The notes: a model not told the origin generated them from the sequence alone. Shown: positions 1 through 17,051, counted from the first letter of the stretch. The stretch: 64,000 nucleotides of DNA from a virus (IMGVR_UViG_3300029288_000079:1-64000); one strand, 5' to 3'. Program-made: numbers and translations.

Positions 1-260
1 CCATACACACCATCTTTCTGCAATCTTATTCCACTAGGTAATCTTTTGTTTTCTGCAATAACGTCTTTCCATATGTTGCTAGCTACTTTTTCTGCTAAGT
101 CCATTTTATCAATACATCCATCACATAATGATGTATGCTTATCAGGAAGATCGTTGTATTCCCTTCTAGTAAAATATTCTTTAATTTCACAACCCGTACA
201 ATATAAAATATACCTACCATCTATATCTATAAAACCTGCAAACATACCTTGATTAAACAT
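1..260 (-). CDS. hypothetical protein with two CxxC motifs (runs off window start)
   Basis: Manual translation from ATG at 260: MFNQGMFAGFIDIDGRYILYCTGCEIKEY...SLCDGCIDK..., open to position 1. Confidence 0.55.
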   Translation of the reverse strand, partial: MFNQGMFAGFIDIDGRYILYCTGCEIKEYFTRREYNDLPDKHTSLCDGCIDKMDLAEKVASNIWKDVIAENKRLPSGIRLQKDGVY

Positions 261-465: not shown

Positions 466-493
466 ACATTCACCTCATATTTATAATAATATG

Positions 494-947
494 TGGAGCT
501 GCCGAGATTCGAACTCGGGTCTTATAGATAAATCACCTAGACGACTACAAGTTTATTCTGTTTAAAACTTCTTTTGCCGCTATACTACAGACAAATTCGG
601 ACAATATAGATGATCTTTAATAACTATCAGAATCATCAAACTGATTTCCGCAACCTCCACCACCTGACTTTAAGGATCCTTAGACAAAGCTTATTATTAT
701 CAGATTCATTCGTCTGTTTATTTATAAGTCTCCGGTCGTGCTTACCGTCTCTAAGAATTATCAAGACCTTTGCTTGTTTAGGCTCCCTTAGGCTTCAACA
801 AGCTCTTCACCAGCAAGAACTAAACTACCATCCTCACTAACGAATGATGTCGATTTTTGATCGGCATTTTTAGTTTTCTAACTTTTAAAGAGTCAGCAAC
901 TTACTTGCCCTCTAGACTTTCATCTATAATCGATACCTTTCAGCCCC
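494..947 (-). ncRNA. ssrA: tmRNA
   Basis: 5' GGGGCTGAAAGGTATCGA; 3' GACCCGAGTTCGAATCTCGGCAGCTCCA; acceptor stem with G3-U70 and A discriminator; T-arm; internal tag frame 865..788 after TAAAAAT-GCC resume context. Confidence 0.93.
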
Positions 948-954
948 ATTTTTC

Positions 955-962
955 AAAGAACA
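955..962 (-). promoter_or_regulatory. boxA-like motif TGTTCTTT(GAAAA) upstream of tmRNA
   Basis: Resembles rrn boxA consensus; one of four copies. Confidence 0.6.
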
Positions 963-967
963 AATAT

Positions 968-1140
968 GATTTACAGGTAATCCAATTACTCTTATGTTCA
1001 GTTATTCCCTCACATAAGACCCACGACGAAATCCTATAGGTATGGACATGGGGGCAGATTTAATCTGCAGAGTGTCTTAGCACTTGATTCTGCAAATAAC
1101 GATTTCGTCACCATGACTCTAAGCAGCCTGCCTGTAAACC
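968..1140 (-). ncRNA. structured ncRNA, about 173 nt, possibly 6S-like
   Basis: Closing stem GGTTTACAGG/CCTGTAAATC; inner stem GACGAAATC/GATTTCGTC; hairpin CTTATGT/ACATAAG; no minus-strand ORF. Confidence 0.55.
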
Positions 1141-1148
1141 AAATTTTA

Positions 1149-1156
1149 AAAGAACA
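1149..1156 (-). promoter_or_regulatory. boxA-like motif TGTTCTTT
   Basis: Identical octamer just upstream of the 968-1140 RNA. Confidence 0.55.
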
Positions 1157-1166
1157 TTAAAAACTT

Positions 1167-1432
1167 TGCAACCACTAGCAGGCTTCGAACCTGCAACATT
1201 CGATGATTCATGTAGGTGTGTTTTATTGGTTACACAAATCTATATATGGCATCGAACTTGCCAATATTATCAAATATATCTTCGCTTTCTGGAGGTTCAA
1301 ATGACCCAATTTACGTGGAAGATCACACAATGCTTATCGAAACATCACCTATCGACAGTTCACTGATTAATACTACCCCAGGATTGCTACTTTGATATAT
1401 CTTAAGCGTCTACCTGTTTCGCCATAGTGATC
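1167..1432 (-). ncRNA. tRNA-like RNA with about 200-nt structured insertion in place of the anticodon arm
   Basis: Acceptor (G)ATCACTA/TAGTGGT(T); D-arm GCG-AAACAGGTAGA-CGC; T-arm GCAGG-TTCGAAG-CCTGC; no anticodon stem. Confidence 0.7.
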
Positions 1433-1434
1433 AC

Positions 1435-1442
1435 AAAGAACA
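1435..1442 (-). promoter_or_regulatory. boxA-like motif TGTTCTTT
   Basis: Identical octamer 2 nt upstream of the tRNA-like RNA. Confidence 0.55.
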
Positions 1443-1455
1443 AATAAAATTAAAG

Positions 1456-1624
1456 TCCTTTACAATACTGTTGGTATCTCTTTAGTTGTACCAATTTCAG
1501 GGGCTCAACCTGCGTCTGCTTTTGACTAAGTATCTTGAGCCTGCCTAGTCATTATCAGCAAAATAATTCCAATCACTATAGCCGAGAAAATATTTCTTTC
1601 CTTATTTATTCAGTATTATAAAGA
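1456..1624 (-). ncRNA. structured ncRNA with predicted kissing loop
   Basis: Closing stem TCTTTATAATACTG/CAGTATTGTAAAGGA; stems TGACTAGG/CTTAGTCA, CAGG/CCTG, TTGGTA/TACCAA; complementary loops GGCTCAA and TTGAGCC. Confidence 0.6.
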
Positions 1625-1627
1625 ACA
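1620..1627 (-). promoter_or_regulatory. boxA-like motif TGTTCTTT
   Basis: Identical octamer at the 5' end of the 1456-1624 RNA. Confidence 0.5.
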
Positions 1628-1672: not shown

Positions 1673-1963
1673 TTAGACAGATTCACCCAATAACTTTTCA
1701 ACAAACTTTTTCAATCTTTCAAGTTTCTCCTCACAATCAACCATTGTTCCACCATTAAATAAATGTGTTATTTTAATAATCTGGTTTTGTATAATTCCTA
1801 ATTCTGATCTTCTCTTATTCAAGTTGTCAGTATCAGTCAAAGTTAAATACTGGTTTAAGTAATCTTCCATCGCTTCGATTACTAAATTACTATGCGCTTC
1901 AACATGACAATCATCTTCGATCAGTAAATGTCTTCTTTTTAAAATTTTAAATGCTAATTCCAT
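1673..1963 (-). CDS. hypothetical protein
   Basis: 96-aa ORF in the minus-strand gene run. Confidence 0.6.
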   Translation of the reverse strand: MELAFKILKRRHLLIEDDCHVEAHSNLVIEAMEDYLNQYLTLTDTDNLNKRRSELGIIQNQIIKITHLFNGGTMVDCEEKLERLKKFVEKLLGESV

Positions 1964-14744: not shown

Positions 14745-17051
14745 TTATCCAAATAATATTTTTTCAGTTTCTTTTTGTATAGCTTCCTGCAATTCAGGTT
14801 TATCCAATAGAAACTCCTTTACTGAATCAATACCCTGACCAATTTTGTCCTCTTTATAACTATACCAACTACCTGATTTTTGTATAACATTTCTTTCAAC
14901 AGCAATATTTACTAAATCTGTTAAAAAGTCAATACCTTTACCAAATATAATCTCAACTAAAGCCTCTCTAAAAGGAGGTCCAACTTTATTCTTTACTACC
15001 TTAATCCTATTCTTGCTACCTACAACTACTGAATTTTTATCCTTCATAAACTCTATGCGTCTTACATCTATACGAATTGAGGCGTAAAACTTCAAAGCAT
15101 TTCCTCCTGTAGTAGTTTCATTAGATCCAAACATAACACCAATTTTAGAATTATGTGTTAAAAATTGATTTGCTATAAATAATTTATCACCCTCTACTTC
15201 TATATCAAAAGCTTCAAATTCTACATTTTCTATATCCATAACCTGACAAAATCTATTAGATACTAAAAACTCTCTCTCTATATCAAAGCCTTCCCCAATA
15301 AACTCTAAAAAATAGGATAATCCCAATCTACTACAATTTAATTTTTTGAATAGGCACATCTTATAAGCTTCATAATATCTAAGTTTAGATATATTTTTTA
15401 TACCCTTATCTTTAACTTTATTAAATAAATTTAAAGCATATTCATAAGGTACTACATCATACTTTCCTCGAGCTGTCAGGTCATATTCAAATATTTTACA
15501 TTTATCCTGTTTAGTAATCTCAGCAAACCCTATAATAGAGGAAAATTTTAAAGCATCCTGCCCCGTTATATATAATCGGTTAAACCAGTCACAGTCATCC
15601 TTTCTAATATCAGCAAATATTCCCAAATAATATAATACATTAGCTATTTGAATTGTTGATTCACTATTTTCATTAGTAAATATAAACCCTCCTTTAGTGA
15701 ATCCATGAGTATCAAAAAATACACCCCTTAAAAAAGATATTATAACAGATCTTTTTGATTTCAATATTATATCAGGTATAGTTTTATATTTACCATATCT
15801 TTTTATACCTAAATTTTTCATAAATTGAACAAGATATTTTCCAGTTACAGATATATATTCAGGAGTCCCATATACGTTATCTTTACCAAATATTTTATTG
15901 CACATATCTAAAACTAACTTATGTCTCTCTTTATTTTTCTCTGTAAAAGAAATTCTATAATCTCCGGATTCAGGAGATTCCAATATATAACCATCAGAAT
16001 AGTAACAACCTAAAAAAAAGGCGAAATCCTCATCTAGATTATTAGGAAGTTTCATCCTCTTTGTATTATTGTTAACTTTAATATCATTGATATATTCAAA
16101 TAAACTGATGTAAGATTTATTATCTAAAATTGAGTTTTCCTTTACTATGGGCTGAATAAACCAATCTCCTATTTGAACCTCAGTAGCTTTTTTAAAGGTG
16201 TATTTTCCATTAGATATAATGGGCTGTTTATGATTGTTACTTAAATCAAAATAACCTCTATATTTCAAATATAATCTTTTGCCACCCATCACACCAGAAC
16301 TTATTTTATTAATTATAACATTAGAATGATTTCCACAGCCTAATACGTGGGATCCTAAACTCGCAGACTTTAAATGTGTTAAAGACCCATCGCAAAGTAA
16401 CAACGTGTTCTCTGGAAGACACCTTAGTTGATTAATGAATATTAAAATAGTCTTTGACTTTGCAACAACACTTACCAACTTTCTTAGTGCTTGACCCATC
16501 ATACGAGCTTGAGCACCCATTTGAGCATCCCCAAATTCCCCCTCTATCTCGCTTTTTGGAGTAAGTGCTGCAACCGAATCTACTACTATTACATCTATAG
16601 CACTGCTTCTAACTAACTCTTCAACTATTGTAAGACCCTGCTCTCCGTAGTCAGGTTGAGATAAAAGCAAATCCTCAACATTTACACCTATATTTTTAGC
16701 ATAATTTAAATCCATGGCATTTTCAGCATCTACATAAGCACAAATACCCCCCAATTTCTGTGCTTGAGCTACTATTTGCATGGCTAATGTGCTTTTACCA
16801 GAACCCTCTGGGCCATATATTTCAACAATACGCCCTCTTGGTAATCCACCTACAACTAAAGCATAATCTAATGACATACATCCCGTAGTTATAACCGGAA
16901 CTTTATCTACTGGTTTATCCCCCAAACGCATAACAGATCCTTTACCAATATTTTTTTCAATATTTGCTAAAGCATTCTGCAAAGCTATATTCTTGTCAGG
17001 ATCTATAGCCTGTTTTTCTGGTTTTACGGGTTTAACAACTCTTGCTGCCAT
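14745..17051 (-). CDS. recA: RecA recombinase containing an intein
   Basis: [43 protein letters not shown]; 344-aa extein after intein removal. Confidence 0.97.
15150..16421 (-). mobile_element. LAGLIDADG intein (424 aa) in RecA
   Basis: Starts CLPENT, ends THN followed by Ser+1; FLGCYYSDG and [11 protein letters not shown] endonuclease motifs. Confidence 0.93.

Follow-up and report, generated by a model that had tools for sequence, protein, structure and literature searches.

The window analysed here covers the opening 64 kb of an IMG/VR virus record that is 181.7 kb long, has 33.5% GC and carries nearly all its genes on the minus strand. Near its left end, where the earlier note had seen no credible ORF between positions 494 and 1627, the minus strand carries no ORF of 60 aa or more from 466 to 1672, and ORFs adjoin this region at both ends. 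It holds four RNA genes, named unit 1, unit 2, unit 3 and tmRNA in the order in which they are read, and four copies of a boxA-like octamer, one ahead of each RNA (Table 1).

Table 1. RNA genes, tag reading frame and octamer copies of the array, in window coordinates.
Feature	Position	Strand	Characteristics
Octamer 1, boxA-like, TGTTCTTT	1620..1627	-	also provides the 5′ side of the stem that closes unit 1; intact in L192
Unit 1, stem-closed RNA of ~170 nt	1455..1626	-	16-bp closing helix, 1626-1611 with 1470-1455
Octamer 2, boxA-like, TGTTCTTT	1435..1442	-	kept before the unit 2 homologues of L192 and L119
Unit 2, tRNA-like scaffold	1164..1432	-	7-bp acceptor stem (1432-1426 with 1177-1171), D-arm, canonical T-arm
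Octamer 3, boxA-like, TGTTCTTT	1149..1156	-	intact in L192 before unit 3; decayed to TGTTTTTT in L118 and L119
Unit 3, 173-nt RNA	968..1140	-	P1 closing stem (10 bp), P2 long-range stem (9 bp), P3 hairpin, P4 hairpin
Octamer 4, boxA-like, extended form TGTTCTTTGAAAA	955..962	-	ends 7 nt before the tmRNA 5′ end
tmRNA	494..947	-	Rfam RF00023; G3-U70 acceptor stem; CCA not encoded
tmRNA tag reading frame	788..865	-	25 codons and stop, ending ELVEA; peptide conserved

The phage encodes a sigma-70-family protein, a GroEL homologue, a split SbcC/SbcD system, a family-A DNA polymerase with a UDG-like domain at its N-terminus and a RecA with a LAGLIDADG-like insertion. Among cultured phages, none has a polymerase more than 30% identical to this one, those of SPO1-like Bacillus phages being the nearest. 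The insertion that splits RecA (window 14745-17051) is ~400 aa long, contains a LAGLIDADG domain and is probably an intein; RecA is uninterrupted (342 aa) in the relatives L118 and L124. A Shine-Dalgarno core is found in 45% of the ORFs against 12% of random positions, and this frequent use suggests that the host may be other than a Bacteroidota. In the tmRNAs of these phages (window 491-947), the acceptor strand is followed by TCGATT instead of the TTCGAC of most bacteria, and the TCGATT form is common to the ssrA genes of Omnitrophota and of some Planctomycetota (L016, L018 and L040). Together with a 164-kb relative contig filed at NCBI under a Candidatus Omnitrophica MAG, this form may be a hint to the host.

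In other assemblies of the same phage (L111 and L112), window position 1 is joined straight to genome position 181608, with an overlap of ~126 bp (window 1-127 versus genome 181608-181733). Hence the record is circularly permuted or terminally redundant and not truly linear. Just upstream of the array, a 96-aa ORF (window 1673-1963) is missing in the relative L192, which marks an indel beside the RNA genes. Homologues of this ORF were not found outside the window phage; it occurs in 13 contigs, and because the 7 that were compared are 100% identical to the window phage they offer no variation to learn from. IS605 OrfB/TnpB genes also lie near the array of two relatives, at different sites (L118:14769-15830 and L119:8481-9680).

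The RNA genes and their relatives

Relatives with the same gene order (L119, L118 and L121) were reached through homologues of the SbcD-like protein, and a fourth (L192) by scanning metagenome_contigs with the invariant core of unit 3. As a 17-mer, this core gave 93 matches in metagenome_contigs, of which 4 are real and only L192 is new, and in viral_contigs only two chance matches in coding sequence. Comparison of the array region with 50,697 phage records by blastn returned no match, viral_contigs yielded no relatives when the two small ORFs beside the array or the SbcD-like protein served as queries, and in the more distant SbcD relatives L124-L127 the gene-free gap is not at the corresponding place. 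L192 is ~89% identical to the window and carries the octamer before each of units 1, 2, 4, 3 and the tmRNA, all five copies being intact. The order is unit 3, octamer, unit 2, octamer, tmRNA, a stem-closed element of ~175 nt and a tRNA in L119, unit 3, octamer and tmRNA in L118, and octamer and tmRNA in L121. Module order and content thus vary among the relatives and the octamer punctuation is constant: by our count, GTTCTTT stands at 13 of the 15 module 5′ junctions in this set of contigs, the exceptions being the junction before unit 3 in L118 and L119 (TGTTTTTT, in which the key C is lost) and the element after the L119 tmRNA.

The additional module of L192, unit 4 (L192:365-600, minus strand; ~1596-1830 when oriented), is ~215 nt long and lies between units 2 and 3. 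It begins with a hairpin of 45 nt, after which comes another tRNA-like scaffold (7-bp acceptor stem, D-arm and canonical T-arm) in which an insert replaces the anticodon arm, and the module has its own boxA. The ~175-nt element between the tmRNA and the tRNA of L119 (L119:12143-12318) is closed by a GTGCAGC/GCTGCAC stem; neither a boxA nor an Rfam match was found for it.

The tmRNA called by the earlier note is matched over its full length by RF00023 (491-947; 75.1 bits, gathering threshold 47), and ARAGORN did not detect it. The score above threshold is accompanied by a tRNA-like domain with the G3-U70 pair, its acceptor stem formed by GGGGCUG and CAGCUCC, and by a tag reading frame, the peptide of which is kept with synonymous changes in L119, L118 and L192. 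A 10-bp leader-trailer duplex round the window tmRNA is not kept in L119 and was taken as chance.

For the remaining three RNAs, no Rfam family fits anywhere in 948-1672 at E-values up to 10. In minimum-energy folds, units 1, 2 and 3 are closed by long stems between their 5′ and 3′ ends, with fold z-scores of -2.95 (about -3.0), -1.7 and -3.0, respectively. This closure, and stems that are kept or compensated in the relatives, bear out that the three members which the earlier note could not recognise are real structured RNAs. The evidence is weaker for unit 1 than for units 2 and 3. Compared with L192, the stems of unit 1 are kept with two one-sided GU/AU/GC changes, while its loops and 5′ interior are variable. 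A tRNA-like unit 1 was proposed by ARAGORN only at the 80% threshold and with mismatches, and was not adopted.

Unit 2 combines the tRNA-like elements listed in Table 1 with a U8-type linker, a GG dinucleotide in the D-arm and an insert of ~185 nt at the site of the anticodon arm, and its acceptor helix is lengthened to 14 bp by pairing of leader and trailer. Of the 20 substitutions that set the L192 copy apart from that of the window, 16 fall in unpaired positions and the 4 paired ones all retain pairing. In the comparison with L119, compensatory changes are found in the acceptor and T stems and the insert is barely alignable. An ordinary tRNA was rejected, since the Rfam tRNA model reaches 15.5 bits, versus a threshold of 29, on the 3′ part only, and ARAGORN reports one only if an intron of 184 nt is permitted, with mismatches in the anticodon stem and a variable loop of 8 nt. 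A group I intron as the insert was also rejected, with no Rfam match in 400-1800 at E-values up to 10 and poor conservation of the insert in L119.

For unit 3, the covariation analysis, which the earlier note had proposed as a check, found P1-P3 kept in three lineages, with 96.4% of cells paired. Changes on both sides affect 12 of the 28 pairs, a number reached by none of 500 shuffles, and slid controls gave 1-5. P3 has 9 bp and a 17-nt loop in every case, a 23-nt internal segment is invariant, and the P4 hairpin is kept with unrelated sequence. With no Rfam match, unit 3 is, judged by these comparisons, a new conserved RNA family absent from Rfam. A covariance model of it (R1) run on 21 sources returned nothing beyond the training sequences. 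Two known RNAs were considered for unit 3 and rejected. There is no match to 6S RNA, and the fold backed by covariation is branched (P1, P2-P3, P4) and not a rod. A Y RNA (YrlA) acting with Rsr scored 17.8 bits versus 69, and a TROVE domain was not found in the phage genome.

The octamer and the rrn boxA core

The four octamers lie on the minus strand where the earlier note had placed them, and the copy before the tmRNA has the extended form it gave. In the whole 181.7-kb genome, TGTTCTTT occurs 7 times on the minus strand, and 4 of these copies fall within 673 nt, which a scan statistic puts at ~7e-6 as a rough estimate. Octamer clustering is far beyond chance, in contrast to the even density over the genome that the earlier note had named as the outcome to look for against its reading. 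The remaining 3 minus-strand copies are inside ORFs. On the plus strand there are 12 copies, each antisense to the minus-strand genes, with 11 located within ORFs and 1 intergenic. The four copies of the array are the only non-coding copies on the sense strand of the genome. No sequence similarity was detected among the four units beyond the octamer, hence the octamer is not a remnant of duplication, and the idea that the units are paralogues was rejected. The identity among the four window copies ends exactly at position 8. Ahead of copy 1 there is only a weak 4-bp hairpin (~1655-1640), copies 2-4 come after the closing stem of the RNA before them, and no clear boxB or boxC is seen. The ordinary tRNAs of the window and its relatives have no boxA-like leader.

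The end of the identity at position 8 can be set beside the crystal structure of the NusB-NusE-boxA complex, in which exactly nucleotides 1-8 of boxA are those recognised (PMC3177189). All four window copies match the 8-nt core UG(C/U)UCUUU, that is boxA positions 1-8, in its C3-to-U form. GTTCTTT of the octamer fits the published consensus GYTCTTTAANA (PMC5725501), and the boxA of the Taylorella 16S-23S spacer has been annotated as TGTTCTTTAACA (PMC2666751). Downstream of the core, copies 1 and 2 have A/G and then U from position 9, versus AA in the gamma-proteobacterial consensus. The same form was found in real rRNA operons: each of the five bacterial genomes examined, from Saprospiraceae, three Flavobacteriales and one Gemmatimonadales (two phyla), has [A/G/T]GTTCTTT[G/A]A[A/C/T]A in its 16S leader, its 16S-23S spacer or both. 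On these sequence matches, the boxA-like reading of the earlier note appears well founded, as the octamer equals the 8-nt core contacted by NusB/NusE.

A boxA-led tmRNA also occurs in phages that share almost no proteins with the window phage. The first pattern scan, which required the octamer and yielded four phage contigs, was circular, and viral_contigs was therefore rescanned with a pattern confined to the tmRNA body. Of the 11 phage contigs recovered, 9 have [T/A/C]GTTCTTT[G/A/C]A 5-7 nt before the tmRNA, one has GATCTTT and one has nothing (L010, a tmRNA without the element). In five of these phages (L003-L006 and L011), an initiator-type tRNA-Met, CCA-less and with its own sigma-70-like promoter, adjoins the element; because that promoter lies upstream, the element should be transcribed in all five. 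The tRNA-Met itself has no boxA-like leader. In L002, L007 and L008, a -10 box lies just upstream of the element.

In bacteria, GTTCTTT was found 3-12 nt before the 5′ end of the ssrA tmRNA in 77 species (L013-L089), in a scan that took one genome per species and tmRNA 5′ ends of the type starting GGGGCTGA. The species are mostly Saprospiraceae and Flavobacteriales, with others from Acidobacteriota, Acidimicrobiales, Gemmatimonadota, Omnitrophota and Planctomycetota. The positions +8 and +10, on which the scan did not select, are A in 51/64 and 53/64 distinct ssrA leaders, as in boxA. One Saprospiraceae leader (L068) is identical to that of the window tmRNA over 23 nt. The boxA-like GTTCTTTnAnA of these genes is placed 5-12 nt before the tmRNA, and in Bacteroidota it lies downstream of the TAnnTTTG promoter element. 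In a Gemmatimonadales genome (69% GC at the sampled locus), GTTCTTTRANA occurs 10 times versus 0 for the reversed control, and is found in the spacer of the 3 rrn operons inspected as well as before ssrA. In the bacteria with a boxA-like element before ssrA, none was found at rnpB or the SRP RNA gene. The strict ssrA pattern gave 4 matches in a sample of 401 Bacteroidota genomes versus 0 in the control, a figure too pattern-dependent to serve as a frequency, and the ssrA association, which is real, is hence either lineage-restricted or pattern-dependent. At two Flavobacteriales loci (L109 and L110), the 6S-Flavo RNA is preceded at a distance of ~45 nt by CGTTCTTT[T/A]A, which seems to lie upstream of the promoter element. 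In the limited collection of literature searched, no paper was found linking boxA to ssrA/tmRNA, to GOLLD or to stable-RNA genes of non-lambdoid phages.

The octamer is conserved ahead of stable RNAs in phages both near to and remote from this one, and at bacterial ssrA as well, which supports the reading that the earlier note had put forward.

A possible role for host Nus factors and its alternatives

The best reading of the locus, and one that we hold to be somewhat probable, is that the octamer is an rrn-type boxA which recruits host Nus factors for protection from Rho and/or for formation of the closing helices. The four stable-RNA genes (unit 1, unit 2, unit 3 and tmRNA), in tandem within a long minus-strand transcription unit and each headed by UGUUCUUU as an rrn-type boxA, would be transcribed by the host core RNA polymerase. 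On emerging, each boxA in turn would be bound by host NusB-NusE (S10), and with NusA, NusG and SuhB the elongation complex would pass into the antitermination/chaperone form known from rRNA. Rho would thereby be kept from aborting transcription over 1.1 kb of untranslated RNA, and the 5′ strand of each RNA would stay close to the polymerase over the 170-450 nt that separate it from its 3′ partner, so that the closing helix can form once that partner is made. The RNAs would then be released by host nucleases such as RNase P, and the tmRNA would act in ribosome rescue. Nus binding, antitermination or help with folding, co-transcription and processing are steps that we infer from sequence.

Several properties of the locus are consistent with such a course. 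No match to NusB, S10, RNase III or SmpB was found in the phage genome; a T7-like RNA polymerase was not matched either, which is weak evidence since the same search also matched none of its control genomes. With a sigma factor present and no match to Nus factors, S10 or a T7-like polymerase, the host core polymerase and host Nus factors would be the available machinery. No minus-strand terminator was found in the array, and 1.1 kb of untranslated RNA with abutting ORFs and no terminator is a situation in which Rho would act. E. coli rRNA has been reported to be intrinsically resistant to Rho (PMC5725501), hence strict antitermination may not be the point. Other observations count against the Nus reading: the divergence of copies 1 and 2 from the consensus at position 9, the burial of octamer 1 in the closing helix of unit 1, the decayed copy before unit 3 in L118 and L119, the absence of a boxA before the L010 tmRNA and the ~175-nt element of L119, and the few ssrA matches in the Bacteroidota sample. 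In E. coli rrn operons, the leader-trailer helix is essential and boxA contributes to the quality of the subunits (PMC10250234); the boxA-carrying RNAs described here all close by long-range helices between their 5′ and 3′ ends.

Alternatively, UGUUCUUU could be a processing signal at which a host or phage endonuclease cuts the precursor independently of Nus factors, a reading that we consider unlikely. Each spacer contains the octamer, separated by 0-8 nt from the closing helix that follows, and the extended leader-trailer stems of units 1 and 2 resemble the processing stalks of rRNA. The octamer adjoins the discriminator base of the CCA-less tRNA-Met in L003-L006 and L011, a place at which 3′ trimming is needed. 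However, in L002, L007 and L008 the octamer is at the start of the transcript, after the -10 box, with nothing upstream to remove. Furthermore, the same word in rrn leaders is distant from the mature ends and has NusB/NusE as its documented partner there, and an endonuclease of the RNase III type was not matched in the phage.

A second possibility, very improbable in our judgement, is that the octamer serves RNA structure only, as a pyrimidine-rich strand of the leader that would close each precursor by pairing to a purine-rich trailer, without a protein partner. In the minimum-energy folds, GUUCUUU of unit 1 is paired with the 3′ trailer as a whole, being buried in the 16-bp helix of the finished fold, and so is CUUU of unit 2, but the octamer is unpaired before unit 3 and the tmRNA. 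Pairing would also permit covariation, yet the octamer is invariant at 13/15 junctions while the adjacent stems covary, and the unselected positions of bacterial ssrA leaders match boxA as well.

Least probable of the three is that the octamer belongs to a promoter or terminator and that each RNA is its own transcription unit: although copy 3 falls within a sigma-70-like match (TTGCAA, 17 nt, TAAAAT), TATAAT and copy 1 overlap and U-rich tracts follow each closing stem, the promoter-like sites are not above shuffled expectation, no terminator was found on the minus strand, a -10 box at copy 4 would put the start inside the tmRNA, the octamer of L003-L006 lies between tRNA and tmRNA downstream of a clear promoter, and in Bacteroidota it lies downstream of TAnnTTTG.

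Relation to known boxA and phage RNA systems

The action of boxA and Nus factors is textbook knowledge for rRNA operons and phage lambda, and the antitermination complex of rrn operons comprises NusA, NusB, NusE, NusG, SuhB and S4. The array resembles an rrn operon, with its boxA in the leader and in the 16S-23S spacer, in having the same 8-nt core in the same orientation within an untranslated unit of several RNAs, in the repetition of the copies before successive RNAs and in their position adjoining leader-trailer closing helices. Unlike an rrn operon, it is borne by a phage, has four copies in 0.7 kb (five in L192) versus two per rrn operon, and encodes, instead of rRNA, a tmRNA, tRNA-like scaffolds and a new RNA of 173 nt.

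The tRNA cluster of phage T4 contains tandem tRNAs and the stable RNAs species 1 and 2, of unknown function, in a common precursor. It is likewise a tandem phage array of tRNA-type and unassigned stable RNAs; in contrast, the present array includes a tmRNA and tRNA-like scaffolds that carry large inserts, and to our knowledge boxA punctuation has not been described for the T4 cluster.

The array may also parallel the nut sites of lambdoid phages (boxA and boxB, with N), as a phage use of a boxA RNA element that would recruit host Nus factors. The lambda boxA is a weakened variant that depends on phage N and a boxB hairpin and serves operons of mRNA (see also PMC2724277), whereas the boxA of the array is of the full rrn type and stands before stable RNAs. 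In addition, boxA was reported in 2017 to work outside rrn operons, in regulating the translation of protein genes (PMC5725501). By the authors' own statement, non-coding RNAs were left out of that survey of boxA sites (PMC5725501), and it is before non-coding RNAs, not protein genes, that the boxA copies of the array are found.

What is particular to this locus is the dense punctuation by boxA, cassette by cassette, and the new RNA modules. Tentatively, and with less confidence than we place in Nus recruitment itself, the array could be a modular phage copy of the rRNA operon, made of interchangeable boxA-led cassettes at each of which the host Nus machinery would be reloaded to fold long-range helices, with unit 3 possibly a pseudoknotted RNA. 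In that case the tmRNA genes of several bacterial phyla would also have an old reliance on boxA for biogenesis that has gone unrecognised, and the tRNA-like scaffolds could act on the machinery of the host that handles or targets tRNAs.

This work defines at least two RNA families that Rfam lacks, one represented by unit 3 and the other by tRNA-like scaffolds carrying large inserts. The reach of boxA beyond rRNA and lambda can be approached in this compact natural locus, where four or five distinct small RNAs are each preceded by a boxA of their own and the phage gives no match to Nus factors. A boxA before the chromosomal tmRNA gene in several phyla would extend the idea of Nus factors as an 'RNA chaperone' to an RNA whose ends must meet.
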